Source: Aeromonadales bacterium (lineage in GTDB: Bacteria > Pseudomonadota > Gammaproteobacteria > Enterobacterales > GCA-002770795). Taken from it: 57,698 nucleotides of DNA. The notes beneath the pieces are model-generated. The model did not search any database, had not been told where the DNA came from, and saw only the letters and a program-made list of their open reading frames with translations. The stretch is taken from positions 1 through 57,698 of the forward strand of contig DRNA01000005.1 in NCBI GenBank assembly GCA_011322365.1, given 5' to 3'. Numbering within the stretch: position 1 is the stretch's first letter; every line of letters begins with the position of its first letter. Of the stretch, positions 26,230-57,314 are shown piece after piece. The translations under genes were made by a program, and so were the position numbers.

Positions 26230-26237
26230 TTTACCTC

Positions 26238-28504: not shown

Positions 28505-28521
28505 TTGTTATTCCCCTGTTA

Positions 28522-29883: not shown

Positions 29884-30945
29884 TTAAGGTCTTATTAATA
29901 CCTTCATTGCATCGTCTGATTTATCAAAAAACATTCTATAGGCTTTATCAATATCAACCAGATCGAAATTATGGGTAAAATATTCTTCAGGATTTAAGAC
30001 ATTGCGTTCCATTAAACGTAAACCTTCCCACATAAACGGTTGTACATTAGCAAAACCATTCATGTGTAAGGTAATATCGCGTAAGAAGACATCTGCAAGG
30101 ACCAGATTAAATTCCTGATCACAAAAGACACCAATGGCAGCTATTGTTCCACCGGGACGAATAATATCCAACGCCATTTGTAAGGTTTCGGGATAACCAA
30201 CTACTTCAATAACTTTATCAAAACCCCGCCCATTACAATACGATAATGCCTGCTCCTTACAATCCGTATCATTGGCATTGATTGTTATTGCGCCCTTTTT
30301 AGCAGCCACATCCAGCCGATGTGCAACTTTGTCTATGGCAACAACAATTCCAGCAGCTGAGTTAATAGCAATATCCAGTGCCATCAGGCCCGTCGGGCCA
30401 CATCCAATTAAAGCGACATTTTCACCGGGTTTTATATCTGCCAGTTTGTTGGCTATTATGGCGGACGGTAAATTACAGGAAAGGGTAAGAGCCGCCGCAT
30501 CGGAAATTGCATCAGGGATTATCATGGCATGAGCATCAGCATGAGGTAAAATCAATGCTTCAGAGTGTGTACCATTGAGATCTCCAAATGGGATGCCAAA
30601 TCCATAAACAGCCTTTTGAGTGGTTTCACAATGTGCAGTTTGACCAACTTCACACATGTAACATTCACCACAGGAGCAGGAATAAGCCATTGATATTCTA
30701 TCACCGGGTTTAAACTTACTTACTCTCTTACCAGTTTCTCTTACAATACCGATTAATTCATGCCCTGTCTGTGAACGGCCTTTTTCCATAATGGGATCCA
30801 TCGCCCCTCTATAGAGATGTAAATCAGAACCACAAATAGAAGTTGCTGAGACTTCAACTAGAACCTCATGATCAGCTTTTAACTCAGGTTCATCCACATC
30901 AATTGTTTTTATATTTTCTTCACCAAAATAAACAGCGGCTTTCAT
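29884..30945 (-). CDS. Zinc-dependent alcohol dehydrogenase (MDR superfamily; resembles the glutathione-independent formaldehyde/aryl-alcohol dehydrogenase subgroup)
   Basis: 353 aa. Catalytic-Zn ligands (ICGSDLH, GHELIG), structural-Zn C-x2-C-x2-C-x7-C (CSCGECYMCEVGQTAHC) and NAD fold LIGCGPTG. Confidence 0.85.
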   Translation of the reverse strand: MKAAVYFGEENIKTIDVDEPELKADHEVLVEVSATSICGSDLHLYRGAMDPIMEKGRSQTGHELIGIVRETGKRVSKFKPGDRISMAYSCSCGECYMCEVGQTAHCETTQKAVYGFGIPFGDLNGTHSEALILPHADAHAMIIPDAISDAAALTLSCNLPSAIIANKLADIKPGENVALIGCGPTGLMALDIAINSAAGIVVAIDKVAHRLDVAAKKGAITINANDTDCKEQALSYCNGRGFDKVIEVVGYPETLQMALDIIRPGGTIAAIGVFCDQEFNLVLADVFLRDITLHMNGFANVQPFMWEGLRLMERNVLNPEEYFTHNFDLVDIDKAYRMFFDKSDDAMKVLIRP

Positions 30946-39814: not shown

Positions 39815-39830
39815 AGCAATAATTAAGCCA
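39815..39830 (-). promoter_or_regulatory. Sigma-54 (-24/-12) promoter upstream of the BNR-RND-DUF1302-DUF1329 module
   Basis: Minus strand reads TGGCTTAATTATTGCT, with GG and GC at canonical spacing and a perfect -12 TTGCT. It lies 109 nt upstream of start 39706. Confidence 0.6.
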
Positions 39831-39872: not shown

Positions 39873-39958
39873 CAGCTTTCTTTTCAAGTGATTCTTACAG
39901 AGGGGGTTTTTATTATTGTATGTAATATCGTGATATGGCAGAAAATAATAGATTGTTT

Positions 39959-39972
39959 TTCAAATGACAAAA
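39959..39972. promoter_or_regulatory. Candidate enhancer (UAS) motif shared with the 31.2-kb promoter region
   Basis: TTCAAATGACAAAA is identical to 31184..31197. It lies ~130-140 bp upstream of the -24 element, a typical distance for XylR/DmpR-type activators. Confidence 0.35.
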
Positions 39973-41945: not shown

Positions 41946-42155
41946 TTATAACGAACCTTTATTTTTTAAGTCCATATCTGCCTTACTTATACCACCTACT
42001 GCCCAGTGCTCAGCTGGCACTTCATTGATTACTACTCTCACTTGTTCAGGTTTAACAGATAATGTTTCTACTGCAACAGCAGTCACTTTTTTAAAAAATT
42101 CTTTTTTCTGTTTTTCAGTTCTACCTTTAATGATAGTAGTTTGAATTAATGGCAT
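41946..42155 (-). CDS. dmpI: 4-oxalocrotonate tautomerase
   Basis: The ORF track extends to 42218 and overlaps dmpH. ATG 42155 (behind GGGGA) gives MPLIQTTIIKGRT.. with the catalytic Pro1, 69 aa. Confidence 0.85.
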   Translation of the reverse strand: MPLIQTTIIKGRTEKQKKEFFKKVTAVAVETLSVKPEQVRVVINEVPAEHWAVGGISKADMDLKNKGSL

Positions 42156-42169
42156 TTCTTTATGTCCCC

Positions 42170-42961
42170 TTAAACAAAATTCATACTGATTGACCCCAGA
42201 TCCTGATAACGTACACAAACATTATCCCCGGGCTTAACCGCCACTGCAGCTGTGATTCCACCGGTCATAATGAAGGTCCCGGCCGGAATTTCTTCATTTC
42301 GTTCTGCCAGCATATTGGCTAACATGGCAACGCTTGCCGCTGGATGACCCAGCACCGAAGCTCCAGCACCTGTGGCAACTATCTCTCCATTAATCTCCAT
42401 TACAACACCCAGTGTTTTTAAATCCAGATTTTCAATCCTTTTTACGTTCCCACCGGTAACAAATCGAGATGATGAGGCATTATCGGCAACGACGCTTTTT
42501 AAATCAAAACGAAAATTTTCATATCTTGAATCAATAATTTCCACTGCTGGCAAAACAGAACTAATGGCATCCAGCACATGGGCTACGGTACAACCCGGTC
42601 CACGTAAAACTTTATTGGTTATAACCGCAATTTCTGCCTCAACTTTAGGATGGATCAATTCATCTGTTTTAACGCTTCCACCATCCGGTACACTAAAATA
42701 ATCAGCCAAAAATGCATATATGGGTGTATCAACACCCATCTGAGACATTTTGGCATAAGAAGTCAGGCCCATTTTAAGTCCAACAATCCGGGTGCCTCTT
42801 TCTTCTTTTCTACGGCGAATTTCCCACTGAATATCATAAGCGTCCTCCCAATCCATGTCTGGATAATCATCTGTGATTTTTTTAACATCAAAAGCCTGTA
42901 GCTCTGCATTTTCCAGATGTTCAGCTAATTCAGCAATAACTTCTTTGCTTAAGGTACTCAT
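42170..42961 (-). CDS. dmpH: 4-oxalocrotonate decarboxylase
   Basis: 263 aa, near-collinear with remembered DmpH (AEHLENAELQA.D..K.T.DYP.M...DAY.IQWEIRRRKEERG..IVGLKMGLTS..KM.QMGV.TPIY.FLADYFSVPDGG). Located between the aldolase and tautomerase genes. Confidence 0.9.
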   Translation of the reverse strand: MSTLSKEVIAELAEHLENAELQAFDVKKITDDYPDMDWEDAYDIQWEIRRRKEERGTRIVGLKMGLTSYAKMSQMGVDTPIYAFLADYFSVPDGGSVKTDELIHPKVEAEIAVITNKVLRGPGCTVAHVLDAISSVLPAVEIIDSRYENFRFDLKSVVADNASSSRFVTGGNVKRIENLDLKTLGVVMEINGEIVATGAGASVLGHPAASVAMLANMLAERNEEIPAGTFIMTGGITAAVAVKPGDNVCVRYQDLGSISMNFV

Positions 42962-42964
42962 GTA

Positions 42965-43978
42965 TTATGCTCCTGCTCTTATCATTTCTAATGCTACATC
43001 TTCTATCATATCTTCCTGTCCGCCCACAGTTTTTCTGCGGCCAAGTTCAAGTAGGATTTCCCTGGAGGGGATGCCATGTTTTTTCTCTGCACGCTTTGCA
43101 TGAAGCAAAAATGAAGAATAAACACCGGCATAACCCAGGGTTAATGCATCTCGGCTTACACGGGGTAATTTATCACCCATAATGGGTGTTGCAACATCTT
43201 CTGCCGCATCCATTAAGGCATTCAGATCAACATTAGTCTGAATGCCTTTCATATCGCAAACTGCAGCAAAAACTTCCAGCGGTGTATTTCCAGCTCCTGC
43301 ACCAAAACCGGCAACTGAACCATCAATTCTATCAGCGCCAGCTTCCACGGCAGCGATAGAGTTAGCAACACCCAGACCCAGATTATGGTGGCCGTGAAAA
43401 CCCAGTTCCAGATCAGGAAAGGCATCTCGCATCATGGAGATTTTTCGAGTAACTTCTTCCGGTAACATATGACCGGCCGAATCGGTAACATAGAGACAAT
43501 TGGCACCGTACCCAGCCATGTATCGAGCCTGTTCTACGATTTTTTCTGCTGATAACATATGGCTCATCATGAGAAAGCCAACCGTATCAAACCCCCGGTC
43601 AGCTGCATAGCTAATATGTTGTTCTGAAACATCAGCTTCGCTACAGTGGGTTGCAACACGAACCGTTTTCACTCCAACATCTTCCACCATTTTCAGATCA
43701 TCCACAGTACCAATGCCAGGAATAAGCAAAATAGAAACGCTGGCGTGTTTAAGTGATGGGATTACAGCCTGCAGATATTCTTTGTCAGAATGTAGGGCGA
43801 AACCATAATTAACCGAGTCACCCGCCAGGCCGTCACCATGGGTCACTTCAATTAAGGGCACCTTTGCCCTGTCTAATGCCTGGGACAAATCTTTCATGTT
43901 TTCTAATGTAAATTGATGAGCAATGGAATGCATTCCATCACGTAACGACATATCATGAATTTTAATAACTTTACTCAT
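42965..43978 (-). CDS. dmpG: 4-hydroxy-2-oxovalerate aldolase
   Basis: 337 aa with [10 protein letters not shown] and the [13 protein letters not shown] metal/active-site motifs. Confidence 0.93.
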
Positions 43979-43984
43979 TATTAC

Positions 43985-44884
43985 CTACCCCTCTGACGTA
44001 TCTTTTAACATTTGCTCAGCGAACATCTCCGCTGTTTTGGCAGCGGCGGCGGTCATAATATCCAGGTTACCGGCATAATCGGGTAGATAATCACCTTTTC
44101 CCCTGACCTCCAGAAATATAGAAACCCGCTTACCGTCGAAAACCGGCCCTTCTTTAATTCGGTAACCTGGTACATAACTCTGCACTGCTTTTTCCATATC
44201 TAATACCGAACGTGTTATCGCTTCCTCATCAGGGATATCTTTTGTCAAACAATGGATGGTATCTCTCATCATCAGTGGGGGCTCTGCCGGATTTAGAATG
44301 ATAATAGCTTTTCCTCTTTCCGCGCCACCGACCTTTTCTATGGCTCCCGAGGTGGTTACGGTAAATTCATCAATATTCTTTCGCGTCCCCGGGCCTGCTG
44401 ATTTTGATGAAATTGTCGCAATGATTTCACCATAATTGACAGGCTGAATGCGACTGACCGCATAGACCATTGGAATAGTCGCCTGTCCACCACAGGTCAC
44501 CATATTAACATTATCTTCACCTTTACCCAGATGAGATTGCAGATTAACTGGCGGCACACAAAATGGTCCTATGGCAGCAGGGGTCAGATCAATCACTTTA
44601 ACACCCTGTGCTACCAGCTTTCTTGAAGTCTCAGGATGGACATAAGCTGAGGTTGCGTCAAATGCAATACGAATATCATCTTCTGCTATATGGGGAAGGA
44701 GTCCATCTACACCTTCATGAGTAATTCTTAAACCTTTATCCTTTGCTCTTTTAAGTCCTTCTGATTCGGGATCGATACCTACCATCCAGGCAGGTTCCAG
44801 TACATCACTTCTGAGTAATTTATATAATAAATCAGTACCGATATTGCCTGGACCAATTAATGCACAACGTATTTTCATCTTCAT
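43985..44884 (-). CDS. dmpF: Acetaldehyde dehydrogenase (acylating)
   Basis: 299 aa with [12 protein letters not shown] and the catalytic Cys in [13 protein letters not shown]. The start may be the ATG two codons in. Confidence 0.93.
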
Positions 44885-44900
44885 TTATCCTGTTACACAA

Positions 44901-45695
44901 CTATTTAAAACGGACACTGGTACGGCCTATACCACCAATACTGACCGACATATAATCACCTGGTTCTACTGGCTGCAAAGGAACCAGTGAACCCGAAAGA
45001 ATAACTTCTCCCGCCTTCAGAGATACTCCAAATTTTCCTAACGTATTGGCTAACCAGACCACGCAACTCACCGGAGATGAATCCAGAGCAGCAGCACCAG
45101 CACCGGTAGAAATAACACGGCCATTGAGTTCAACTACCATGCCACAAGTCGATAAATCCAGTGAATTTGGATCAACAGCCTGCTGACCCAGTAAAAAATA
45201 ACCACAGGACGCATTATCCGCTACAGTATCCTGAATTTTTATTTTCCAGTCTTTTACTCGCGAATCAACAATTTCAAAACAGGGCACGATGAAATCAGTT
45301 GCCCTTAATACATCACTAACGGTTACTCCTGGTCCGCACAAATCTTTTTTTAGAATAAAAGCAATTTCGCCTTCTGCTTTCGGTTGAATCATTTTATCGG
45401 TAAGCGAAAGAACTTCACTTTCATCCACAACCATGGCATCGGTAAGATATCCAAAGTCAGGTTGATGCACACCCAGCATATTTTGAACCGCTTTACTGGT
45501 GACTCCAATTTTTTTTCCTATCACTTTCTCACCATCTATCTCAATTCGTTTTTGTAATAACTGAGATGAAATAGCATAGGCGTCCTCAATGGTTATATCG
45601 GGTTCACGATCAGTCAGGGGAGCAATCATTTTCTGCTGACGTAATGCTTGATACAGTTCTTCGGCAAAACCTGTAATTTTCTCATCATCTAACAT
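44901..45695 (-). CDS. dmpE: 2-oxopent-4-enoate (2-hydroxypentadienoate) hydratase
   Basis: 264 aa. The long block VIGKKIGVTSKAVQNMLGVHQPDFGYLTD...IQPKAEGEIAFILKKDL.GPGVT matches remembered DmpE. Confidence 0.9.
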   Translation of the reverse strand: MLDDEKITGFAEELYQALRQQKMIAPLTDREPDITIEDAYAISSQLLQKRIEIDGEKVIGKKIGVTSKAVQNMLGVHQPDFGYLTDAMVVDESEVLSLTDKMIQPKAEGEIAFILKKDLCGPGVTVSDVLRATDFIVPCFEIVDSRVKDWKIKIQDTVADNASCGYFLLGQQAVDPNSLDLSTCGMVVELNGRVISTGAGAAALDSSPVSCVVWLANTLGKFGVSLKAGEVILSGSLVPLQPVEPGDYMSVSIGGIGRTSVRFK

Positions 45696-45725
45696 TATTT
45701 TTCCTCATATATTCTTTGAAAACGC

Positions 45726-47192
45726 TCACAACTTAACACAGATATTTTTCAATTCGGTATAAAATTCTAACGAGTGTACACCACCTTCACGGCCAATACC
45801 CGATTGTTTAGAGCCTCCAAATGAAGTTCTCAGATCACGAAGAAACCAGGAATTTACCCAGACAATTCCGGCTTCTATCTGACCGGCTACCCTATGTGCT
45901 CTTGAGGTGTTTTCTGTCCATACTGAAGCGGCCAGTCCATACTGGGTATCATTTGCCATTTCAATGGCCTGCTCTTCCGTATCAAAAGGCTGTATGTGAC
46001 AACAGGGGCCAAAAATTTCTTCTTTTACCACCGCTGCTGTTTCCGGCAAACCGGTCCAGATAGTTGGAGAAACCCATGCACCCTCTGCCAGTTCGGAAGG
46101 CATTTCAGGTACATCACCTCCTAAAACCACCGTGGCACCTTCTTCCACGGCACGCTCATAGTACGAGAGTACTTTGGCTTTATGTTCCTGACTGATAAGT
46201 GGCCCCATGCTGGTGCATTCATCATCCCATGCGCCCAATTGCAGATTTTGAGCTGAATCTTTCAGGCCTGCCACAAATTTATCAAAAATGGATCTTTCTA
46301 CATACACCCTTTCTGTACCCAGACAAACCTGGCCACAGTTAGCAAAAGCTGAACGTGTCGTACCTTCGATGGCTTTTTCCAGATCACAATCGGCAAAAAT
46401 TATAGCTGGATTCTTTCCTCCCAGCTCGAAAGATACCTGGCATATTTCATCAGCACTGGCTTTAATAATAGCCGCTCCTGTTCGGGTTTCGCCAGTAAAG
46501 GTTATACCATCAACATCAGCATGTTGGGTTAAAAACTCCCCCGCAGAATCAGGACCAAATCCATGAATTACATTGAAGACCCCAGGAGGCACACCTACTT
46601 CATTCATTACTTCTCCAAGTAAAGTGGTCGTTCTGGGTGTTTCCTCTGAAGGTTTCACCACTACCGTATTACCACATGCCAATGCGGGACCCACTTTCCA
46701 GGTCATCAATAATAGCGGCAAATTCCAGGGGCTAATGACGGCGATAACACCCTTCGGCGATCGGACAGCATAATTTAAAGCGCCCTTACCGTCAGGAGTA
46801 TCCAACATAAAACTTTCATTTGGCACCGATTTATACGCATCTGCAAACACCTTGAAATTAGCCGCACCTCTCGGTATATCAATGTGAGAAGCCAGTGATT
46901 TCGGCTTTCCGGTATCAAGACATTCAGCTTGCAGAAATTCATCAAACCGTGCATTAATACCATCAGCAATTTTATGCAGCATTGCCATTCTTTCCGCTAA
47001 ACTCAGTTTCCCCCAGGGTCCTTTTAAAGCCGCTTTAGCCGCTTTAACTGCAGCATCAACTTCCTCTTGACCAGCCTCACAAACTTCTCCAATTTGTTTA
47101 TTATTCGCGGGATTAATATTAGGAAATCTTTTTTGGGATGATGATTCTACAAATTCACCATTAATGAAATTTTTAATTAGTTGCATAGTCAA
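45726..47192 (-). CDS. dmpC: 2-hydroxymuconic semialdehyde dehydrogenase (NAD+)
   Basis: 488 aa. ALDH superfamily with the catalytic-Cys motif FANCGQVCLGTERVYV and the Glu motif FELGGKNP. Confidence 0.9.
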   Translation of the reverse strand: MTMQLIKNFINGEFVESSSQKRFPNINPANNKQIGEVCEAGQEEVDAAVKAAKAALKGPWGKLSLAERMAMLHKIADGINARFDEFLQAECLDTGKPKSLASHIDIPRGAANFKVFADAYKSVPNESFMLDTPDGKGALNYAVRSPKGVIAVISPWNLPLLLMTWKVGPALACGNTVVVKPSEETPRTTTLLGEVMNEVGVPPGVFNVIHGFGPDSAGEFLTQHADVDGITFTGETRTGAAIIKASADEICQVSFELGGKNPAIIFADCDLEKAIEGTTRSAFANCGQVCLGTERVYVERSIFDKFVAGLKDSAQNLQLGAWDDECTSMGPLISQEHKAKVLSYYERAVEEGATVVLGGDVPEMPSELAEGAWVSPTIWTGLPETAAVVKEEIFGPCCHIQPFDTEEQAIEMANDTQYGLAASVWTENTSRAHRVAGQIEAGIVWVNSWFLRDLRTSFGGSKQSGIGREGGVHSLEFYTELKNICVKL

Positions 47193-47268
47193 AATACCTT
47201 TTAAAATAATAGCCTTTTCAAATTCTTTTCAAAGATACTATCTATTTCTAGAGTCCGAGCTTTAAAAT

Positions 47269-47306
47269 TATCAGCTGATCGGCTCAATATCACCGACCAG
47301 CTGATA
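47269..47306 (-). terminator. Hairpin between the DUF1329 gene and dmpC (attenuator or partial terminator candidate)
   Basis: 14-bp stem TATCAGCTGATCGG/CCGACCAGCTGATA (one mismatch) with a 10-nt loop. On the minus-strand RNA it is followed by AAUUUUAAAG. Confidence 0.4.
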
Positions 47307-47349: not shown

Positions 47350-48675
47350 TTATTTACCCTGTACGCGCATATACTGCACTTTGAACATTTTGGGTGGGTT
47401 CAATTCAGGATCTACAATGCCTTTAAACTGTCCCGTTGTGCAGTGCATTGCCTGTACATCCATCATGCCAAAGCTATCATCAATAGAAACACCTGAACCC
47501 TTATTTATAGGTAAATGATGCTCAGGGTTAGCCTGTCCAATCATCCAGGATTTCCAGTATTTTCCCGCTCGGTCATAAATTATAGTACGAGGTAAAGTAA
47601 ATGTTTGAGCATCTACATAGTGAATCCGTTTGCTGATTGGATGGTTTTTATCCACTGGAGAAGACTGTAGGATATACACTTTACGTAACTGATAGCTGAC
47701 ATTAGGAAAACATTTTCCTTTGCCGTGAAAATCTACAAATTTATAGCCATCACTTTCTTTATATTCATCCGTAAGCTGTTGCTCATCATGATTATAAAAT
47801 GGCAGTAACATGTACTTTGTTCCCAGATACTTCCAGTTCATATCTGAAATTCTACCATTGTAACCCTCAAAATCTTCAATCATCAGATCAGAACCCAGAA
47901 ATGAATCAGTCACCTGTCCTGTGGCTAAACGACGTACACGCCGCTGAAATCCAAGATACAACCAGGCATTATCTCTTTTTAAATCATTTTGATAGCGATG
48001 AATGAGTAGCTGAGTATTTTTCACATCAAAAGGTTTTTGCACATGAACATAAATCGAACGAAACAGTTTTCCAGGATTCGGTGTAATCTCAGGCTTAGGA
48101 TCATGATTAACCCGATGTGCCCAGTTCAAAAAATGAAAATCAAACTTTATTTCCCTTTCTACTTTCGCAGTATTCATATTTCGATAACGCCAGTAAAAAG
48201 GTGAAATAGCGGCACTATCACCCCAGTTATATCCATACTGGAAATTCCAGGCCAGTTTTTCACCTGCTCGGGGATCATTGAGATCAGGTTCTTCAGGGAA
48301 AGGGCGTCCGGCCACATAACCTTCTAGTTGACCTTTTTGAGCACCTAACTTCACTTTACCCACGGCATCCTTTGTAGCTTGAATATAACCATTGTTTAAA
48401 ATGAAATCAGTGGTCTCACCTACTGTTATTTCGACCCAGCCATCTTTAACATGCTGCAGCATTTCCGGATCCAGTACGTCTTTAGCCAGATCGGCATTAT
48501 CCTTGTTTATCACCAGTCCAGGTTTAATATTCTCGGCTGATGGGAAACCCGTTTTATAAGGGTAAAAAGATTTTTCAACATCTTCAAGCGTTGAAGCATT
48601 GACACTTATACTCAACATACAGAAAGTGACCGTATGCAGTATTTTATTTAAATTTTTCATGTTAGATATCCTCAA
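47350..48675 (-). CDS. DUF1329-family (LolA-like) protein
   Basis: 441 aa with a signal peptide. IKPGLVINKDNADLAKDVLDPEM, GSDLMIEDFEGYNGRISDMNWKYLGTKYMLLPF and YVDAQTF...IYDRAGKYWKSW match my memory of DUF1329. Clear paralogue of 56037..57314. Confidence 0.8.
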   Translation of the reverse strand: MRISNMKNLNKILHTVTFCMLSISVNASTLEDVEKSFYPYKTGFPSAENIKPGLVINKDNADLAKDVLDPEMLQHVKDGWVEITVGETTDFILNNGYIQATKDAVGKVKLGAQKGQLEGYVAGRPFPEEPDLNDPRAGEKLAWNFQYGYNWGDSAAISPFYWRYRNMNTAKVEREIKFDFHFLNWAHRVNHDPKPEITPNPGKLFRSIYVHVQKPFDVKNTQLLIHRYQNDLKRDNAWLYLGFQRRVRRLATGQVTDSFLGSDLMIEDFEGYNGRISDMNWKYLGTKYMLLPFYNHDEQQLTDEYKESDGYKFVDFHGKGKCFPNVSYQLRKVYILQSSPVDKNHPISKRIHYVDAQTFTLPRTIIYDRAGKYWKSWMIGQANPEHHLPINKGSGVSIDDSFGMMDVQAMHCTTGQFKGIVDPELNPPKMFKVQYMRVQGK

Positions 48676-48692
48676 AATAAGAACTATTTAAT

Positions 48693-50657
48693 TTAATCAA
48701 AACGGTAGCGTACGGTTAATTGAATTTCATTTTCATTATTGGCCATACCTAATGGTCCTGCACGGAATCGTCCTAAAGGTTCAAAACCACCCAGTCCCGC
48801 ATCGAATGAATCGGGTAAACCATCACCATCATTATCCGTATGAATTGGAGTAGCAGTAAATGGTGTAAACGGATTACAGGTTCTACAGTCACTGAACTTC
48901 TTAGCACCGTCACCAAATTTTATATTGGCAACCAGAGAAAAACGCCAGTTGTCACTCATCAGAAAATCAACTGATGGAGCAACAACACCTGAATGTGCTC
49001 TCCAGTCATAAGCCGAGAGAATTTGAGGACTTAAACGGTCATTCATCCACCAGCCTTTTATTAACAAGGTAGAAATATGATCGACTTTCCAATCCGGCAT
49101 ACCTACTATTCCCAGAGGTGCATTTTGTGTTTCATGATCAAGCAGACGTTGTTCAAAGGTCTGAAATGAAATCAGAAAGGCTTTATTTTTATTAATCGCT
49201 CTGATAAACAAATTATGATCAATACCAATAACCCAGCGAATAACATCAGATTTTGAAAAAAGCCGTGGCTTTAAGGTATTGGCAAATTCTTCACCACTAG
49301 TATAGGCAGCCTCTACCCTGAAAGCTGTTTTCAACGTATCTGAATAAAAATCAAGAGAACCGCCAAACAATGTGATCTGCGGGAAATCAATATCAAAAGA
49401 TATCAGATAAGGAAAAACCGTATCGGTTTGGCCCGTGAATGAATTAGTCGAGGGAATTCCACCTCTTAAGGAAGGAAGTTGAGAACGATACCTTAATGCA
49501 TTCAGAGAGAAACCAACATCCTTATAAACGCCTTCAACTTTAATACCAAATTGAGAGTTAGCCAATGACCATTTGGGCATATTGGCCTGTCGAATACCGA
49601 TCTGATGAGGTCCAAAATCAGTGGCTATTGTACCATTAGCAAAATTGGAAACCGTACAGCCATTATCCCAACAGTTTTTCATGCCTCTGAAAAATGATCC
49701 CGCGTCCAGGATCTGATTGGGTGTACCACCCTGTCCCAGATTATTGGGTCGGAACTTATCAAATACCCATACCATCTGAAAATTGATATCATCGAAAGTA
49801 TCATTGGCACCAAACTGCCACTCAGCCGCTGCTGACCACAGGGGAATACGAATATCTTCCAGTTCATCATAAATGTTGTTTCTGGAAAAATCGACCGGAT
49901 TAATCACATCCAGCACCCTGAACAAATCGGTCCGGCCCCACACAATCTGTTGTTTACCTAAACGTAAATTAAATGCGGTGCCACTATCTAAATCTTTATT
50001 GGCATCAAAATAGGCCTCACGAATAAAATCCAGACGATTGTTAAATTCGGGAAATCTGAGATTGTTTTCCGATTGATTCATGTAACCGGCAATACAGCCT
50101 CTGGAATCAACATTACAGGGACGAACAGGCACGCCGAAGGATACACCTCCATCTACAGCATGAAGGTTCTGACCTAAAACTTCCAGGCCTTCATTGGGAT
50201 TATTGGCGACGTCAAAACCCAGAACATTTCCCGGAGGTAACGGTGCACCAAAGTAAGGAGATGCTGGATTTGAAGAGCCAAGCCCCAAACCATGTGAAAC
50301 CGGTCCAGCAACCTGATCGTCAATTAAAATGGCACCACCTGCTTTTGAGCCAAATTCATCATCATTGAGATCATAGACAGCATCATAGGTTCCACGTAGT
50401 GTGGCATTAAACGTAACATTGGAAAAAAATCCGGTATTACCCATCTGTTTTAGAAATTCAAACTGAACAGTATTTCGTACTTTTGAAAGCCCTCTATGCT
50501 CACGCGTATTCGTGGCATTTTCGATAAAGCCATCGACCTCTAAAGTATCATCTGCTGCAAATGCCGGAACGGTACCTGCGATCATTGCAAATAAAACCAA
50601 ATAAAACGATTTATTGGCCACTGGAAGTTTACTCCAGCGAGTTAATGTTATTTTCAT
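48693..50657 (-). CDS. DUF1302-family outer-membrane beta-barrel protein
   Basis: 654 aa with a signal peptide ending AFA-AD. Beta-strand periodicity. Paralogue of 34212..36167. Confidence 0.75.
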   Translation of the reverse strand: MKITLTRWSKLPVANKSFYLVLFAMIAGTVPAFAADDTLEVDGFIENATNTREHRGLSKVRNTVQFEFLKQMGNTGFFSNVTFNATLRGTYDAVYDLNDDEFGSKAGGAILIDDQVAGPVSHGLGLGSSNPASPYFGAPLPPGNVLGFDVANNPNEGLEVLGQNLHAVDGGVSFGVPVRPCNVDSRGCIAGYMNQSENNLRFPEFNNRLDFIREAYFDANKDLDSGTAFNLRLGKQQIVWGRTDLFRVLDVINPVDFSRNNIYDELEDIRIPLWSAAAEWQFGANDTFDDINFQMVWVFDKFRPNNLGQGGTPNQILDAGSFFRGMKNCWDNGCTVSNFANGTIATDFGPHQIGIRQANMPKWSLANSQFGIKVEGVYKDVGFSLNALRYRSQLPSLRGGIPSTNSFTGQTDTVFPYLISFDIDFPQITLFGGSLDFYSDTLKTAFRVEAAYTSGEEFANTLKPRLFSKSDVIRWVIGIDHNLFIRAINKNKAFLISFQTFEQRLLDHETQNAPLGIVGMPDWKVDHISTLLIKGWWMNDRLSPQILSAYDWRAHSGVVAPSVDFLMSDNWRFSLVANIKFGDGAKKFSDCRTCNPFTPFTATPIHTDNDGDGLPDSFDAGLGGFEPLGRFRAGPLGMANNENEIQLTVRYRFD

Positions 50658-50736
50658 TATATCCCCCTCTTTAATAAGTAGTTTTAAACTACGATCATTG
50701 ATTAGAGTCCTGCAACCCCATCAAATTTATTGACAT

Positions 50737-53091
50737 CTAACCCGCTCTAACCGAGATAATAAACTTCGGTTTAAATGTCATAATCCAGGCTGGTACTAAG
50801 AACATGGCGGCTAAAGCATTTAGTACCAGCATTACAATCAGTAACAAGGCTGCATCGGCCTGAAACCGCATTGTAGAAATAAAGACCCACATCACCACTC
50901 CAGCAATTAAGGCTAATGCAGTAAAACCAATCGCTACGCCAGTAGTTCCAATCGCTTCCCTAATCGCGTCCTGTAAACTAGCTGATTTCAGATACTCTTC
51001 ACGAATACGATCCATAATATAAATGGAATAATCGATACCAACCCCAATACCGACAGCGATAATGGGTACTGTATTTACGTTGATTCCAATGCCTGTAATA
51101 CCCATGTAGGCATAGGTTAATGTGGTGGCAAAAGACATCGCCAATAACATCAACCAGCCAGCGTGAAAAGACCAGTAAAAAACAGTCACAAAAACCAGAA
51201 TAAGTAAAAATACCAAAGGAATAACTACGATATTGGTGTTGTATGCAGCTTCATTAATGGCAGCAGTGACACCAATAACCCCTCCCGCAAGCTCAAGTGA
51301 AAAACCATCAATTTGAGCCATACTGGAATTGGCCCATTCTTTCACCATATGTATCGCCCGGCGAATAGTCTCCCCTTTGTGATCTTTATAGTAAAAAACC
51401 ATATTGGCATTCTGCTCATCCGGATCGAGGAACTCTTTGAGTGCACCAGGAATAGGGCTGGACATCATATAGGTGAACATTAAACCACCGGCTTCAAACT
51501 TATCTTTGGGATAAGCTAACCAGCGTGGATCGGTATTATGGATAATACGATTAACCTGTGTGACCAGATCAGGAAGCCCTTTGCTACCACCCATTTCAGG
51601 ATCCAGCATCATATAATTCTGAAAATCCGCAAGTGCTCTAATCACTTTGGGTTCTTTCAATCCGGCTTTTTCATCGGTGTGAGCAATAATGTAAAGTTCT
51701 TCAGAGCCGGGAAATAAACCATTGATAGCTTTTGAAGATACATTGTAATCATGGGTAGGATAAAGCAGAGGGGAACCCGGTTCAGACTGCCCCACCTGTA
51801 CCCAGGAACTAAAATAACCACCCACGACATAAAGTAAAACGACCGATATTAAGGTAAATCTGGCACCCTTTCGAGTACATGCAACCCGGGATATTTTTTC
51901 AAATATAATATGTAAAAATGTATGCCGTTGCTGGATTTGACGGGTTTCGGGCAATATTTCCAGTAACACCGGTACAAATATGAGAACAGTAATAATCACA
52001 CTACCGGCCCACAAAGAAGAATAGACCGCCAATTTATCGTTGATTGGAACCGAACCCAATGAGATAAGCAATAAACCAATGGCATCGGAAATTACACCCA
52101 GTGAACCCGGCCTGAAAAGTCCTTCGAAAGTATTTCGCGCGGCAGTTTGTTTATTATGATCAATACGATGTTCATGATAAAAACGTTCAACCAGCTGGAT
52201 ACCATGAGACATTGCTCTTGCTGAAATCAAAAAGGGAACAACCATCATCAACGGGTCAAGGTTATAACCCAGTAAAGCTAATATACCCAGTCCCCAGACA
52301 GTGGTAAGTACGATACCAATTAAAGGGAGTAACACACCATAAAAACGTCTGAAATAAAGTACCAGCAATACCAGTAAAACCAGCACGGTATAAAGAAAAA
52401 TCTGCAGTATTTCACCCACATAGCTGGTCACCCAACCAATAAGCACCGGTTTACCCGTTGCATAGATTTCCACATCATCAGTTGCTTCTTTAAGTCGAAT
52501 TTTTTCTAATTCACTGAATATAGTTGAATAATCAAGCTCGCCTTCATTGAGAGTGCCACGGACCAGCGCTGCGGTCAGATCAGGAGAAACCAGTAAGCCA
52601 TACACTCTGGGATTTGCCACAACCTCATTTTGCATAACTTTTAATTCTTCATCACTGTAACCCCCTTTTTTCAGAGGGTCATAATGAGGTGCAGATTTCA
52701 TGGTGCCAAATTCATTGAGCCATATCTTACGAGTATTTCGATGGGTTAAACTACTGACCAGGTTATGGTTGATGCCGGTCATAGAATCTATCGACTGAGT
52801 AATTCTATAAATTCGATTTAAGGTATCATTGGTAAAAATAGTGCCGGTTTTAACTTTAATCGCAACCACTACATTATTCGCACCACCAAAGGTTTCACTG
52901 ATTTTATTATGCGTCTGTATATAGGGATGTTGTTGGGGTAATAAATCAGAAAACTCTGATGCCATACGTACCGCAGGAAGCTGGAAAGCAAAAAACACCG
53001 TTATCGCAAGAATAATAGCTGCAGTTATTCGAGGGTAGGCAAAAACGATTCTATCAATCTTTTTCAGCTGGGAAATAATGTTAAACATCAT
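50737..53091 (-). CDS. RND-superfamily permease of the COG1033/MMPL (HpnN-like) type
   Basis: 784 aa with the same 2 x 6 TM plus two periplasmic loop architecture as 36186..38531. ATGA overlap with the upstream BNR gene. Confidence 0.85.
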   Translation of the reverse strand: MMFNIISQLKKIDRIVFAYPRITAAIILAITVFFAFQLPAVRMASEFSDLLPQQHPYIQTHNKISETFGGANNVVVAIKVKTGTIFTNDTLNRIYRITQSIDSMTGINHNLVSSLTHRNTRKIWLNEFGTMKSAPHYDPLKKGGYSDEELKVMQNEVVANPRVYGLLVSPDLTAALVRGTLNEGELDYSTIFSELEKIRLKEATDDVEIYATGKPVLIGWVTSYVGEILQIFLYTVLVLLVLLVLYFRRFYGVLLPLIGIVLTTVWGLGILALLGYNLDPLMMVVPFLISARAMSHGIQLVERFYHEHRIDHNKQTAARNTFEGLFRPGSLGVISDAIGLLLISLGSVPINDKLAVYSSLWAGSVIITVLIFVPVLLEILPETRQIQQRHTFLHIIFEKISRVACTRKGARFTLISVVLLYVVGGYFSSWVQVGQSEPGSPLLYPTHDYNVSSKAINGLFPGSEELYIIAHTDEKAGLKEPKVIRALADFQNYMMLDPEMGGSKGLPDLVTQVNRIIHNTDPRWLAYPKDKFEAGGLMFTYMMSSPIPGALKEFLDPDEQNANMVFYYKDHKGETIRRAIHMVKEWANSSMAQIDGFSLELAGGVIGVTAAINEAAYNTNIVVIPLVFLLILVFVTVFYWSFHAGWLMLLAMSFATTLTYAYMGITGIGINVNTVPIIAVGIGVGIDYSIYIMDRIREEYLKSASLQDAIREAIGTTGVAIGFTALALIAGVVMWVFISTMRFQADAALLLIVMLVLNALAAMFLVPAWIMTFKPKFIISVRAG

Positions 53092-54077
53092 TTTTCTCCT
53101 TCCGCTAAAGAAGACCGGAAAAGCACACCACTCCCCCCGGCAAGAATAGCAAAGTCTTTATTGAACATAGAGGCTCTAAGATAGGAGCGAGTTTTGTTCT
53201 GATAAAAAAATGGTTCCCAATGAATAGAGCTATCTGAATCCGTCAACGTCCGAGTTAAAACGGTTCCCAGCGCTCCTACTGCAAACAATCTCTGTCCATT
53301 TTTAGATAATCCATACAGCGGGACGGGTGTGCCAGTTTCTTCCACTGACCAGGATTGACCCGCGTTTTCAGTATACAAAATTTTGCCACCAAGTCCGGCA
53401 ACCCAACCGGTATTCATATCAGTAAACAATGCGCTGATAGGATAAAACTCATTTGGCATAGTTGTTACCATCTGCCAGTTTTTTCCGCCATCGGTAGTAC
53501 TGAGTAAATTGCCAAATTCGCCTGTAGCCACACCATGGTCTGCATCAAAAAAAGTGATATACGATAAAATCATGTCTTCGTCCAGAGATTGACTTGACCA
53601 GGAAACACCTTTGTCAGCACTCGATAAGAAGGTACTAAAACTTCCCACAACCCAAAGCTTGCTATCAGGGGCACAGGTGATTGCCTGAGGCGTTTCCGCT
53701 GTTTCTATTTTGTGAGATTGCCAGCTTTTACCATTATCGTCAGAAACCCAGACATCGCCTTCAACCGAGAGAGTAACCAGCGAATTATCGGGACAGGCAG
53801 AAATATCAATTAAAGTGGGTTGCCCCTTTAGCTGTTGTCGTGTCCAGTTTTTGCCAGCATCGAATGAAACCAGTACCACCCCAAAAGAACCCACAACCGC
53901 TATCACTTTGCCATTCGTGCTGGTCGCCTGCAGGCGATCAGTGCGATGCAGCGCTTTAGCTTTTTCAGAAACCACAGAATCCAGCTTTAAGGGTGCTTCA
54001 CAGGCCTGTAGAAGCAAAAATGCCAGACCATAAACAAGATACTTGAAGCATTTAATTTTTTGCAAGGCACCCTCCAC
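53088..54077 (-). CDS. BNR/Ycf48-like beta-propeller protein, possible lipoprotein
   Basis: 329 aa with a GTG start. Repeats FDAGKNW, DDNGKSW, ADKGVSW, TTDGGKNW, TENAGQSW. The N-terminus ..LAFLLLQAC-EAP is lipobox-like. Confidence 0.8.
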   Translation of the reverse strand: MEGALQKIKCFKYLVYGLAFLLLQACEAPLKLDSVVSEKAKALHRTDRLQATSTNGKVIAVVGSFGVVLVSFDAGKNWTRQQLKGQPTLIDISACPDNSLVTLSVEGDVWVSDDNGKSWQSHKIETAETPQAITCAPDSKLWVVGSFSTFLSSADKGVSWSSQSLDEDMILSYITFFDADHGVATGEFGNLLSTTDGGKNWQMVTTMPNEFYPISALFTDMNTGWVAGLGGKILYTENAGQSWSVEETGTPVPLYGLSKNGQRLFAVGALGTVLTRTLTDSDSSIHWEPFFYQNKTRSYLRASMFNKDFAILAGGSGVLFRSSLAEGEK

Positions 54078-54153
54078 AATACGAAGTCTTCATACTCAAA
54101 TAACACCAAATTTGATGTTATTTTTTTATTATTTACTGTACCCTAACATCATA

Positions 54154-54165
54154 AATATCGATATT
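54154..54165. promoter_or_regulatory. Perfect 12-bp palindrome in the GntR/BNR divergent intergenic region (operator candidate)
   Basis: AATATCGATATT, with a partial repeat TCGATATT 12 bp downstream (54177..54184). Confidence 0.25.
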
Positions 54166-54317
54166 CAACACTTTGTCGATATTTTTTATTAAATATATAT
54201 TTTGCAATTTTATTGATATTTATGCATTATAAAAACAACAGAGAACAAATTATTGAGATTAAGAAAGAGAATTTTGTTATATTTAACAGATAGATAAAAA
54301 TTTACGGACTATTAATA

Positions 54318-55023: not shown

Positions 55024-56022
55024 CTAAGCCGGGATATCCACAGATTTTTTCTTAAGCCTTGATTCTATTTTTTGTTGAATTAAGGCATAAACCAACGAAG
55101 TCACAGGGACTTCCTGTTGAATTTTATGAGCACGTTGTATCACCACGCCGGGTATCGCATCAATTTCCAGAGTACGCTGTTTCTCCCAGTCAACCAGCAT
55201 AGAGGTTTTTATAGGATCAAAATGACAAATAAGCTGATACATTTCCTCAATATCATTTTCTGTTAAAGTAATACCATCGGCCTGAGCTGCAACGGCTGTT
55301 TCCTGCATCATTTTATAAACAAATACACCTAACGATTTATGATTAGAAAGTTCAAAAGTATCCATACCTGTGAGTACCGATAAGGGATTAACCCCATTGT
55401 TTATAGCTAATTTTCGCCATAGTTCATACTGAATATTTTCCACTACTACCGTAGGAATACCCGCTTCATTCATTATCTGTACCCACTGGGGCAAAAGCGT
55501 CTTAAAACGGTTATCCACACCGGAATCCTCATTGGGCCAAACACCCATTTTTATTTCAGCAACACCTTTTGCTTCAATGACTCCCGGGCGAATGATATGC
55601 CCACCAATACGAATAGCCAAACCGCCAATAATGATATCTTTTCCCAGCAACCCAGATAAAATCACTTCATTATCGACGCCATTTTGTAATGAAATAACCG
55701 CAGTTTTACTCTTCGATGCCTTGAACCACTCACTCAATGTTTCTGCAATAGATTGCGTTGAAGTGGCTTTTGTGGTCAGAAAAATAAAATCAAAATCAGA
55801 CGGTTTTTCATCGGTAATAATTTCATCAAAAGAACAGGCATTCACCGCACCCGAGAAAGAACATTCAGCATGCTCCATAACCAGGCCTTTGTTTTGAATA
55901 GCCTCTAGATGAGCACCTCTGGCCACAAAGTGGACATCGTGCCCCTGTTGCAATAAACGGATACCATAATAACAACCGATACCACCCGCACCAACCACCA
56001 GAATGCGTAATTTTCTAGACAT
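55024..56022 (-). CDS. Ketopantoate reductase (PanE/ApbA) family NAD(P)H oxidoreductase
   Basis: 332 aa with an N-terminal Rossmann ILVVGAGGIGCYYG. Length and C-terminal helical domain are typical of ApbA/PanE. True substrate unknown. Confidence 0.8.
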   Translation of the reverse strand: MSRKLRILVVGAGGIGCYYGIRLLQQGHDVHFVARGAHLEAIQNKGLVMEHAECSFSGAVNACSFDEIITDEKPSDFDFIFLTTKATSTQSIAETLSEWFKASKSKTAVISLQNGVDNEVILSGLLGKDIIIGGLAIRIGGHIIRPGVIEAKGVAEIKMGVWPNEDSGVDNRFKTLLPQWVQIMNEAGIPTVVVENIQYELWRKLAINNGVNPLSVLTGMDTFELSNHKSLGVFVYKMMQETAVAAQADGITLTENDIEEMYQLICHFDPIKTSMLVDWEKQRTLEIDAIPGVVIQRAHKIQQEVPVTSLVYALIQQKIESRLKKKSVDIPA

Positions 56023-56036: not shown

Positions 56037-57314
56037 TTAGCGCCCTCTTGTTCTTAAAGATTGTACGGTAAAATCTTTTTGTTTCAAATTTTTAACATTT
56101 ATCCGGGTTTTCATTTTCAAAGTTGTACAGTGCTCTGCCTGCACATCCACCATCGAAACCAGGGAAGGAATCGCAACTCCACTACCTTTGTTCTGAGACA
56201 AATGATAATCAGGATGGGCAAAACCGGCAATACCCAGTCGCCAGATTTTTCCTGAACGATCATAATATCGGCCAGAAACTGGTATAAATGTTTCTGCATC
56301 CACATAAAAAATTCGCTTCGACAAAGGATGTTGTTCCCATTTAGGTATCGCTTCCAGTGTATAAACCTTCCTTAGCTGCCAGGGTATATTGGGGAAGCAT
56401 TTACCCTGTCCATGAAAAGTACCAAAGCGGAACCCGGAAGAATCGGCAACATCCCCCAGCGGGATCTGATCATATCTGAAAAAAGGCACCAGTAACTCTC
56501 TCGTTCCCAGAAATTTCCAGTGCATATCTTTGATGCGGCCGTTATAACCCAGGAAATCTTCAATCATGATATCACTTCCCAGAAAAGCATCAGTAGATTG
56601 CCCGGTGGGCAAACGCCTAACTCTTCTGTGGATGGATAAATAAAGCCAGGTTCGTTCACGAGCGCTATCATCTTCCAGCCGATGCACCAATAACTGCGTA
56701 TTTTTCAAATCGAAAGGTTTTTTTGCCAACAGATAAATAGCATTGAATATATCTGCCGGGTTATCAGCCAGTTCAGGCACTGGCTCCAGTAAGACTCGAT
56801 GTTTATAACGAAGGGTTTTGCCAACAAAAGATAACGTTCTTTCAATTTTGCCAGTTTTCATATTGCGGTAATCCCAGATAAAAGGATCGACCACAGAACT
56901 ATCGCCTCCATAGCTGTAACGCATATTCCAGGCCAGCTTTAAACCAGCTGATTTATCTGCCATTGAAGGTTCAGCACTAAAAGGCAAACCTTCCCTGTAA
57001 TTTTCAATCTGTCCGGTTTCAGCATTAAGCGATGCCAGCCCCTTATATTTTCTGGTTAAAGCCTGAAATACTTTATTAGCAGGAATAGAAAAAGTCTTAC
57101 CCACCTTAATGCTGAGGTATTGTTTTTTAATCAATTGAGAGATTGGCTCATCAATAAAATCTGTATATTTAGCTACATTTTGGGATGTTATCAACAAACC
57201 AGGTTCAGGGCGTTCTGCAGCATTTAATAACAATGGCATGAAAAGAGATCCGGTAATTATAGCAATTTTTAGCATCTTTAAATCAGTCAGATAGATAATC
57301 AGAATATTTATCAT
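56037..57314 (-). CDS. DUF1329-family (LolA-like) protein, orphan copy
   Basis: 425 aa, collinear with 47350..48675 (e.g. GSDIMIEDFLGYNGRIKDMHWKFLGTRELLVPF; YVDAETF..YYDRSGKIWR). The start is probably M14 (57275), giving the signal peptide MLKIAIITGSLFMPLLLNA. Confidence 0.8.
   Translation of the reverse strand: MINILIIYLTDLKMLKIAIITGSLFMPLLLNAAERPEPGLLITSQNVAKYTDFIDEPISQLIKKQYLSIKVGKTFSIPANKVFQALTRKYKGLASLNAETGQIENYREGLPFSAEPSMADKSAGLKLAWNMRYSYGGDSSVVDPFIWDYRNMKTGKIERTLSFVGKTLRYKHRVLLEPVPELADNPADIFNAIYLLAKKPFDLKNTQLLVHRLEDDSARERTWLYLSIHRRVRRLPTGQSTDAFLGSDIMIEDFLGYNGRIKDMHWKFLGTRELLVPFFRYDQIPLGDVADSSGFRFGTFHGQGKCFPNIPWQLRKVYTLEAIPKWEQHPLSKRIFYVDAETFIPVSGRYYDRSGKIWRLGIAGFAHPDYHLSQNKGSGVAIPSLVSMVDVQAEHCTTLKMKTRINVKNLKQKDFTVQSLRTRGR

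Follow-up and report, generated by a model that had tools for sequence, protein, structure and literature searches.

A candidate AphS/BphS-repressed AmeABCD-type envelope cassette adjoining lower meta-cleavage genes in a marine gammaproteobacterium

Introduction

AmeABCD of Castellaniella defragrans 65Phen is a four-protein system in which AmeA belongs to DUF1302, AmeB is a DUF1329/LolA-like protein, AmeC is COG4447/Ycf48-like and AmeD is an HAE3-type RND protein (PMC6394551). Deletion of ameABCD reduced monoterpene tolerance and increased the accumulation of Nile Red, and an ameB transposon mutant grew poorly on monoterpenes (PMC6394551). Here we describe a cassette of this kind, designated module 2, at positions 47350-54077 (minus strand) of contig DRNA01000005.1 from an Aeromonadales bacterium; the window analysed is the entire 57,698-bp contig, which has a G+C content of ~40%. 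Module 2 precedes the lower meta-cleavage genes dmpC-E-F-G-H-I and faces a divergent gene for a GntR-type regulator, and a second, diverged cassette (module 1) lies beyond these genes on the same strand. The best overall explanation of the locus, which we consider likely, is that an AphS/BphS-type regulator represses an AmeABCD-type cassette together with the lower meta-cleavage genes.

The four cassette genes are linked by cofitness in Shewanella, Kangiella and Pseudomonas (10.1101/072470), and in P. putida PP_0765/6 and PP_2018/9 are needed for growth on Tween 20 and on butyl stearate/fatty esters (10.1101/2020.07.04.188060). AlphaFold co-folding suggested DUF1302-DUF1329 and DUF1329-BNR-RND complexes (PMC10866462; PMC13499233) and led to the proposal of a substrate transport system (PMC10866462); DUF1302 has no solved structure (PMC13499233). 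Members of COG4447, COG1033, PF07044 and DUF1302 are predicted to belong to AphS/AphR/AphT regulons (PMC6449761). Among Betaproteobacteria, the predicted regulator of the cassette is AphS in Dechloromonas and AphR in Burkholderia sp. 383; in Methylibium it is AphT, and there the cassette shares a transcript with aph genes (PMC6449761). The published AphS/BphS operator, which occurs as multiple sites, is AwATATCGATATwT or AAATmTCGAkATTT (PMC6449761). DUF1302 and DUF1329 are large and widespread families without an assigned biochemical function, and they recur in hydrocarbon/aromatic degradation islands.

The module 2 cassette and its proteins

The initial annotation had described a second complete copy of an envelope module at 47350-54077 on the minus strand. 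All four open reading frames were recovered there, each with a strong Pfam match:

53088..54065, minus strand: Ycf48-like BNR β-propeller lipoprotein (AmeC-like, COG4447); Pfam PSII_BNR, 1.7e-26; open reading frame extends to 54077
50737..53091, minus strand: HAE3/MMPL-type RND inner-membrane transporter (AmeD-like, COG1033); Pfam MMPL, 6.5e-25
48693..50657, minus strand: DUF1302 protein (AmeA-like, predicted outer-membrane β-barrel); Pfam DUF1302 (PF06980), 1.3e-44
47350..48660, minus strand: DUF1329 periplasmic LolA-fold protein (AmeB-like); Pfam DUF1329/LolA_like (PF07044), 4.5e-69; open reading frame extends to 48675

The genes are co-oriented and contiguous, the BNR stop codon overlapping the RND start by 4 nt and the other two gaps measuring 79 and 32 nt. 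The most likely BNR start is the TTG at 54065, which has a GGAGG Shine-Dalgarno sequence and gives an M-Q-K N-terminus like that of the orthologue in L004 (metagenomic and other related loci are given L numbers). The BNR protein carries the lipobox LLQAC and matches Ycf48 structures in the PDB with E values down to 3.9e-20. The RND protein has ~12 hydrophobic segments and two large loops (residues 34-227 and 432-620), and matches MmpL3 in the PDB at ~1e-13; its best NCBIfam model is TIGR00921 (HAE3; 1.9e-41), with a score of 142 bits against a curated cut-off of 352. The DUF1302 protein has a signal peptide ending AFA-AD, and its barrel fold is taken from previous work (PMC13499233, PMC6394551). 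For the DUF1329 protein the start was refined to ATG 48660, in agreement with a 436-aa database protein (P0001); an exact-sequence look-up of the frame read from its TTG start returned no match, the database protein beginning five codons later. An AlphaFold2 model of this protein (predicted local distance difference test score 86.9) retrieved LolA3, 4Z48 and 3BK5 in Foldseek, with a probability of 1.00 and target-normalised template modelling scores of 0.80-0.83. N-terminal signal peptides are present in the BNR, DUF1302 and DUF1329 proteins. By family composition, rather than by comparison with the AmeA-D sequences, module 2 is a predicted four-component envelope transport cassette of the AmeABCD type.

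A candidate repressor and its putative operators

The divergent gene was annotated initially as a FadR-type GntR regulator, and the GntR (PF00392) and FCD (PF07729) domains of its product indeed place it in the FadR subfamily. The gene and the elements that separate it from module 2 are as follows:

54318-55010, plus strand: GntR/FCD regulator gene (Pfam GntR 4e-18, FCD 2e-14)
54173-54182: putative operator O1, ATATCGACAA
54155-54164: putative operator O2, ATATCGATAT, 18 bp from O1 centre to centre
54207-54222: weaker third operator-like site
54140..54168, minus strand: predicted sigma-70-type module 2 promoter, with -35 TTGAAT (54168..54163), a 17-nt spacer that holds O2, and TG-extended -10 TAGGGT (54145..54140)
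54173..54201, plus strand: predicted GntR promoter, with -35 TTGTCG overlapping O1, 17 nt, and -10 TATATT (9/12 in a consensus scan)

Across 90% of its length the GntR protein is 43% identical to the product of the GntR gene that heads the bph operon on pPNAP01 of Polaromonas naphthalenivorans CJ2, a gene named BphS in PMC6449761. A scan of genome contigs with the window protein returned a single match, 26% identical, from Desulfobacterales. The protein was also aligned with two orthologues, and an alignment-based metagenome scan yielded 78 loci, which were annotated by tblastn with the window proteins. Orthologues with at least 44% identity are almost always divergent from a lower meta-pathway operon, (C23O)-(HbpS)-dmpC-E-F-G-H-I, where C23O is catechol 2,3-dioxygenase, in ~30-35 metagenomic loci. 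The regulator is thus probably, in the first place, a regulator of the lower meta-pathway operon, being divergent from dmpC itself in most relatives.

Nowhere else in the 57.7 kb of the window is ATATCGAYAW matched exactly than at O1 and O2. A paired site, TATCGAYA-N10-TRTCGATAtttt, its halves 18-19 bp apart, is present in the window and also in eight further distinct sequences from intergenic regions next to GntR genes, against a background frequency of 0.13 per kb for its core, and a dual site with 19-bp spacing also lies directly upstream of CJ2 bphS. With an AphS/BphS position weight matrix (PWM), O1 and O2 score 14.7 and 17.9, values that are partly circular because the core of the matrix was built from sites selected by the core pattern; seven sites in 57.7 kb score at least 10. 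The match of the putative operators to the published consensus, together with the identity to CJ2 BphS, makes 54318-55010 a candidate AphS/BphS-type GntR/FCD repressor gene.

On the module strand the order O1, -35 TTGAwT, O2 within a 17-nt spacer and TG-extended -10 TAGkGT is kept in the window, L004, L008 and L010, and the -10 TATATT of the GntR promoter is conserved in L004. The position of the GntR -35 inside O1 would imply autoregulation, and the whole layout appears classical for a repressor that occludes two back-to-back promoters, its own included. The initial annotation saw no -24/-12 element at this module, and none was found: 54078-54317 contains no match to the pattern, direct reading reveals no GG-N10-GC, and there is no upstream activating sequence (UAS). 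A 20-bp near-perfect palindrome, TAACATCAAATTTGGTGTTA, lies at 54101-54120 in the predicted BNR 5' leader, between the -10 and the ribosome-binding site; the same place in L004 holds a different inverted repeat, TTATGAT-N12-ATCATAA.

Two cassette lineages under different predicted regulators

As first reported, the gene order of module 2 recurs in the window: BNR, RND, DUF1302, DUF1329 and a further DUF1329 gene occupy 31255-39706 (module 1), 7.6 kb from module 2, behind an activator gene and sigma-54-type elements:

40112-41812, minus strand: XylR/DmpR-type sigma-54 activator gene (Pfam XylR_N/V4R, sigma-54 AAA+ and HTH_8 domains)
39972..39956, minus strand: UAS-like element TTTTGTCATTTGAAAAA, ~140 bp upstream of the -24/-12
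39830..39815, minus strand: -24/-12 element TGGCTTAATTATTGCT (TGGC-N8-TTGC), ~125 bp upstream of the module 1 BNR start
38528-39706, minus strand: module 1 BNR gene
36186-38546, minus strand: module 1 RND gene
34212-36167, minus strand: module 1 DUF1302 gene
32763-34190 and 31255-32745, minus strand: module 1 DUF1329 pair

The shared gene order and strand, over a distance of only 7.6 kb, are what would be expected if the modules were redundant copies from a recent in-genome duplication. This idea was rejected on the identity values and can be given almost no weight. Identity between the modules is 27% for BNR, 29% for RND (743 residues) and 24% and 21% for DUF1329, while the DUF1302 proteins share 25-30% in local patches only. 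Each type has, in contrast, orthologues of 70-84% identity in other genera. The module 2 DUF1329 protein has orthologues of 65-89% in many marine gammaproteobacteria (70% in Cycloclasticus pugetii), and the module 1 RND has ~70% orthologues in Cycloclasticus, which carries both types, each in polycyclic aromatic hydrocarbon (PAH)-dioxygenase or phenol clusters (L001, L087). When eight RND sequences were aligned, those of type 2 showed 72-84% identity to the module 2 RND, and all those of type 1 showed 27-28%. Furthermore, L004, the closest relative represented by a long sequence (its DUF1329 is 83% identical), carries module 2 at the corresponding position and lacks module 1. These values, which bear out the clear divergence noted initially, show that the modules are, on sequence, two anciently diverged lineages of one cassette. 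In L004 (16674-18940) the XylR-type gene is followed directly by dmpK, and module 1 with the zinc alcohol dehydrogenase (ADH) gene, 29884-39706 in the window, is absent; module 1 plus ADH is therefore an insertion/deletion difference between close relatives.

The -24/-12 element of module 1 has two mismatches to the sigma-54 pattern. Across the window this pattern gave 30 matches where 31 are expected by chance, and only positionally sensible matches were used. ADH-dmpK is preceded by the same UAS 14-mer and by TGGCATAGAAAGTGCT. The elements of both units resemble the phenol-hydroxylase promoter (Pdmp) of L004, which consists of the palindrome TTTGTCATATGACAAA and TGGCATAGATAGTGCA, and also the published AphR motif GCTTGATCATTTGATCATGC. 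The combination of UAS and sigma-54 promoter thus appears twice in the window (39815-39972 and 31114-31197), as if it had been duplicated along with the insertion. In L086 a module-1-type RND gene, 79% identical, again follows a XylR-type gene.

The initial annotation proposed two regulatory logics, and AphS/BphS-type operators at module 2 versus a XylR/DmpR-type UAS with a -24/-12 at module 1 fit that proposal, which the cis-elements and the synteny support. An equivalent split had already been predicted for Betaproteobacteria (PMC6449761). The PWM scan revealed no AphS-type site upstream of the third DUF1329 gene of the window, ADH or the XylR-type gene, nor in the gap before dmpC. One AphS/BphS-type site of moderate score (PWM 10.8), GAATTGTCGATAGTAA at 40061-40076, separates the XylR-type gene from the module 1 UAS. 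It could mean dual control of module 1 by AphS and XylR, as in Betaproteobacteria, or could be a chance match.

Cassette position in related loci

The cassette holds different positions among relatives of the locus. In the window, L004, L008, L010 and L015 it separates the GntR gene from dmpC, and in L013, L020, L021, L036, L037 and L073 it is downstream of dmpH, with operators found only at the GntR/dmpC divergon. In L013, judged from open reading frame coordinates, dmpG/dmpH, dmpH/BNR and BNR/RND overlap by 4 nt each, the dmpH/BNR junction being ATGA. In L006 the cassette is placed upstream, reads A-B-C-D and converges on the GntR gene; the dual operator is present in three copies, one each in front of C23O, the cassette and HbpS-dmpC. 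The DUF1302 gene of this cassette (7877-9873, in a 3.3-Mb genome) was called as three fragments of 161, 384 and 106 aa, which may reflect a frameshift, a pseudogene or an assembly error. A fourth arrangement, with no GntR gene nearby, is that of Cycloclasticus L001; L001-L003 contain neither an AphS/BphS-type regulator nor its operators. Operator placement across these arrangements indicates that, wherever the regulator is present, the cassette is either directly behind an operator or distal in an operon headed by one. This supports the view that the module 2 lineage would belong to the AphS/BphS-type regulon in every regulator-containing arrangement seen.

A conjugative catabolic plasmid provides a further side observation. 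Next to dmpK-P, the Pseudomonas veronii T1 IncP plasmid (L090; NZ_CP142043, 271837-274783) carries sigma-54 regulator, YCF48-related and RND genes, in this order. Its RND is 58% identical to that of module 2, the match falling in two pieces with no listed gene, and may be a pseudogene or run over the origin of the record.

The regulator gene is itself convergent with a predicted minus-strand satellite operon, made up of a third DUF1329 gene (56037-57314) and a 2-dehydropantoate-reductase-like gene (55024-56022). The third DUF1329 protein is 46% identical to that of module 2; for the tandem DUF1329 pair of module 1 the value is 49%. The link between this gene and the GntR gene is kept in L004, L008, L010, L015 and L055. 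Module 2 had been said to contain one DUF1329 gene instead of two, which holds for the contiguous module and fails for the locus as a whole, the third DUF1329 gene being just beyond the regulator. Module 2 may thus also use a pair of DUF1329 proteins, with the gene for one lying on the far side of the regulator gene. The third DUF1329 gene of L004 is preceded by a TonB-dependent receptor gene, and in the window a near-operator, CCGATATCGATTTG, at ~57490-57505 fails the PWM.

The junction between module 2 and dmpC

Module 2 runs on the same strand into the lower meta-cleavage genes (47186..41946):

45726-47186, minus strand: dmpC (Pfam Aldedh)
44901-45695, minus strand: dmpE (Pfam FAA_hydrolase)
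43985-44884, minus strand: dmpF (Pfam AcetDehyd-dimer)
42965-43978, minus strand: dmpG (Pfam HMGL-like/DmpG_comm)
42170-42961, minus strand: dmpH (Pfam FAA_hydrolase)
41946-42155, minus strand: dmpI (4-oxalocrotonate tautomerase-like open reading frame, N-terminus MPLIQ)

This junction and the hairpin reported in it were both confirmed, with the dmpC start refined to ATG 47186 and the gap consequently 163 bp, compared with the 157 bp given before. The terminator-like or attenuator hairpin (47264..47306, minus strand) comprises a 15-bp stem and an 8-nt loop (47306..47269) followed by A-UUUU. Its folding energy is -26 kcal/mol (z = -6.05), and none of 200 shuffled sequences folds as well. The tail reads A-UUUU-AAAG, which is not a run of five or more U, and a generic terminator scan made no call there; the generic promoter/terminator scan was not enriched over shuffles. 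The hairpin arms have no REP-like repeat copies elsewhere in the window. No Rfam family or tRNA was found in the window, so that neither this hairpin nor the palindrome in the 5' untranslated region of BNR is a known RNA element.

Five homologous junctions were compared. In all of them the DUF1329 stop codon is immediately followed by a stable hairpin that ends in a U-rich tail:

Window: hairpin as above; no AphS-type site after it, even at a PWM score of 3
L004: hairpin homologous to that of the window; one weak AphS-type site after it
L015: unrelated, more canonical terminator; two strong AphS-type sites after it
L092: unrelated, more canonical terminator; no AphS-type site after it
L093: unrelated, more canonical terminator; one AphS-type site after it

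The hairpins of the window and L004 have a common core, GGUCGG/CCGAUC, and their outer stems have been swapped for different, still complementary bases. The presence of a hairpin at all five junctions indicates that the cassette has conserved a stem-loop here, acting at the 3' end or as an attenuator. A separate predicted promoter under AphS control is clearly present before dmpC in some relatives.

The junction gap of the window (47193-47349) contains no -24/-12 and no UAS motif. A match of the generic promoter scan, TTGAAA-18-TATTTT (47232..47203), was rejected as the dmpC promoter, since it would leave a leader of ~10 nt. Between the hairpin and the dmpC start, at 47214-47233, there is a direct repeat, TTTGAAAAG-N2-TTTGAAAAG, with an 11-bp period, which is not found in L004 and may serve in protein binding or form part of a promoter.

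The surrounding island

An aromatic-catabolism island extends from ~17.7 kb to the right end of the window, with nearly all genes on the minus strand. Besides the features given above it contains:

57314..56037, minus strand: third DUF1329 paralogue (DUF1329, 1e-69)
56022..55024, minus strand: 2-dehydropantoate-reductase-like gene (Pfam ApbA)
30945..29884, minus strand: zinc ADH gene
~29856..23384, minus strand: dmpK-L-M-N-O-P (a complete phenol hydroxylase set), then genes for ferredoxin and catechol 2,3-dioxygenase and an HbpS-like gene
23351..18610, minus strand: tmoA-F-like four-component monooxygenase genes
18553..17732, minus strand: alpha/beta hydrolase gene (hydroxymuconic semialdehyde hydrolase-like)

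Below ~17 kb the contig turns to housekeeping genes (oxaloacetate decarboxylase, glutamate synthase, amtB/glnK).

Discussion

In the explanation that we favour, a proton-driven HAE3/MMPL-like RND protein of the inner membrane would work with a Ycf48-like lipoprotein, a periplasmic DUF1329 carrier of LolA fold and, in the outer membrane, a DUF1302 protein. Two ATATCGAYAW palindromes are the predicted binding sites of the repressor, O2 in the -35/spacer region of the module promoter and O1 on the -35 of the repressor's own promoter, and the repressor would keep both promoters shut until a pathway metabolite releases it. BphS of KKS102 is released by a ring-fission product, 2-hydroxy-6-oxo-6-phenylhexa-2,4-dienoate (HOPDA), and by analogy the releasing metabolite here would also be a ring-fission product. 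The ancestral target of the repressor would be the lower meta-cleavage operon, the cassette lying here between that promoter and dmpC-I, while module 1 would be driven by a sigma-54 promoter and a XylR/DmpR-type enhancer, alongside the phenol hydroxylase genes. Hydrophobic aromatics would be pulled from the inner membrane/periplasm and passed, via the LolA-fold carrier, outward to the DUF1302 protein, and such outward transport would match toxic substrate levels to catabolic capacity.

Several observations weigh against parts of this explanation. The RND proteins of both modules score below the curated HAE3 cut-off, the PWM scores of the operators carry the circularity described above, and the module 2 -10, TAGGGT, is a weak match in a promoter that was predicted from conservation alone. 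The phenotype of P. putida on esters fits uptake/envelope biogenesis at least as well as efflux (10.1101/2020.07.04.188060). The remaining points concern the junction, where a strong hairpin (-26 kcal/mol) follows DUF1329 and has an equivalent at all five junctions, and where the AphS-type operators behind the hairpin in L015 and L093 point to separate transcription units in at least some relatives. It is quite conceivable, if not the reading we prefer, that module 2 and dmpC-I are two transcription units also in the window, with the hairpin at 47306..47269 acting as an efficient intrinsic terminator and a dmpC-I promoter located in the last ~80 bp of the gap, outside GntR control in this organism. 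The U-rich tails of the five terminator-like hairpins fit such a division, as do the internal regulated promoters implied by two strong operators in L015 and one in L093, and the TTGAAA-18-TATTTT match lies in the expected region. This promoter would, however, place the ATG only ~10 nt from the transcript start and exclude the AAGG ribosome-binding site, and in the window gap there is neither a -24/-12 nor a UAS, nor any AphS-type site down to a PWM score of 3. In addition, the U-tract of the window hairpin is only four U after an A, and in relatives without an intervening cassette operators lie directly before dmpC, so that an unregulated lower pathway would be odd here. On balance we lean towards a leaky hairpin terminator, with read-through accounting for at least some of the dmpC-I expression; no other part of the model is less secure.

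The sequence shows the components and the putative regulatory sites, whereas transport direction and cargo are inferred. RND, MMPL and HAE3 proteins that have been characterised, MmpL3 and HpnN among them, work as exporters. That both modules extrude hydrophobic aromatics is the likeliest of the readings and, in our estimation, an even call; the efflux reading draws on this exporter record of the RND/MMPL/HAE3 proteins, on the Ame deletion phenotype and on the regulators, which sense substrates or pathway flux. The cassette might instead be an uptake/delivery route for hydrophobic growth substrates, from the outer-membrane barrel through the LolA-like carrier to the inner membrane. This is consistent with the requirement for PP_0765/6 and PP_2018/9 on Tween 20 and butyl stearate, with the substrate transport proposal that followed AlphaFold co-folding (PMC10866462), with the poor growth of the ameB transposon mutant on monoterpenes, and with the consistent embedding of the cassette in catabolic clusters. 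We nevertheless regard uptake as unlikely: the characterised members of the transporter families export, deletion of ameABCD raised Nile Red accumulation and toxicity, and phenol, toluene and similar small aromatics cross membranes unaided. A somewhat less probable alternative is that the cassette exports an envelope lipid or cell-wall component in response to solvent stress, with aromatics as the signal and not the cargo. The phenotypes are pleiotropic, Price et al. proposed 'export of a cell wall component' (10.1101/072470), the nearest characterised RND relatives (MmpL3, HpnN) move lipids, and a passage of 10.1101/072470 cites the occurrence of DUF1302 and DUF1329 proteins in Delftia outer-membrane nanopods. 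A housekeeping role of this kind, however, needs no two or three diverged copies tied to catabolic operons and pathway-specific regulators.

The initial annotation had also read the divergence of the modules as functional specialisation, for example in substrate or in direction of transport. Nothing in the sequence speaks to different substrates, and opposite directions for two proton antiporters of the same RND family are unlikely. The module 2 lineage is predicted to be wired to a lower-pathway AphS/BphS-type repressor in all arrangements examined except Cycloclasticus L001-L003, and not to the XylR-type activator of module 1. It is doubtful, more so than either of the alternatives above, that the lineages handle different cargo, with parent aromatics for module 1 and catechols, quinones or ring-fission semialdehydes for module 2 and the third DUF1329 protein, or that one of them is an import conduit. 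If true, such a division would amount to a metabolite-gated, two-stage envelope transport system of DUF1302/DUF1329 proteins. Short of this, the locus reveals no new kind of system. Its significance is that one cassette lineage appears to be a stable member of the AphS/BphS-type regulon in marine aromatic degraders, with a second in the same island predicted to be under sigma-54/XylR control. Operator sequences and inducers are now concrete and testable, and Cycloclasticus, which is culturable and has both lineages, is suited to knock-outs.

Comparison with known systems

Like AmeABCD, module 2 unites the four protein families in one cassette inside a catabolic island for hydrophobic substrates. 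It differs in gene order, C-D-A-B compared with A-B-C-D in Castellaniella, and in context, phenol/toluene meta-cleavage rather than monoterpenes, and the island in the window holds two diverged cassettes and an extra DUF1329 gene. The AphS/BphS regulons (Suvorova & Gelfand 2019, PMC6449761) share with the locus a GntR/FCD protein and multiple ATATCGATAT-type palindromes, the proximity of phenol/biphenyl meta-pathway genes, the additional presence of a XylR/DmpR-type (AphR-like) activator and, in Dechloromonas, Burkholderia sp. 383 and Methylibium, the cassette as a predicted member. Those regulons are from Betaproteobacteria, whereas the window derives from a marine gammaproteobacterial metagenome-assembled genome. 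Its GntR gene is alone and divergent, in contrast to the aphRS operon, and the candidate repressor, 43% identical to CJ2 BphS, fronts the lower pathway and the cassette instead of phenol hydroxylase.

In P. putida KT2440 (PP_0765/PP_0766 and PP_2018/PP_2019) and Shewanella amazonensis (Sama_1588-1591) the same four families are linked by cofitness in random barcode transposon-site sequencing. The Pseudomonas homologues differ in being split between two loci, in having a LuxR-type regulator and Tween 20/fatty-ester phenotypes, and in lacking a link to aromatic meta-cleavage. The order BNR-RND-DUF1302-DUF1329(-DUF1329) is shared with Cycloclasticus pugetii (L001/L087), the P. veronii T1 IncP plasmid and plasmid 2 of Aromatoleum aromaticum EbN1. 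Cycloclasticus has orthologues of both window types at 70-72% identity, the plasmid copy of P. veronii T1 (58%) adjoins dmpK-P and a sigma-54 regulator, and the Aromatoleum RND (36% identity) is the nearest annotated betaproteobacterial homologue seen. Unlike the window, none of these records has an adjacent GntR gene, and in Cycloclasticus the neighbours of the cassette copies are genes for ring-hydroxylating dioxygenases.

Publications of 2018-2019 had already described the cassette, the repressor family and the operator, as well as the association between them, and the locus is a solid but largely ordinary example of this arrangement, known from other aromatic-degrading bacteria. What it adds is that the association extends to marine gammaproteobacteria, that the position of the cassette relative to dmpC-H varies under one conserved operator, and that two cassette lineages and an orphan DUF1329 gene occur in one island under different predicted regulators.

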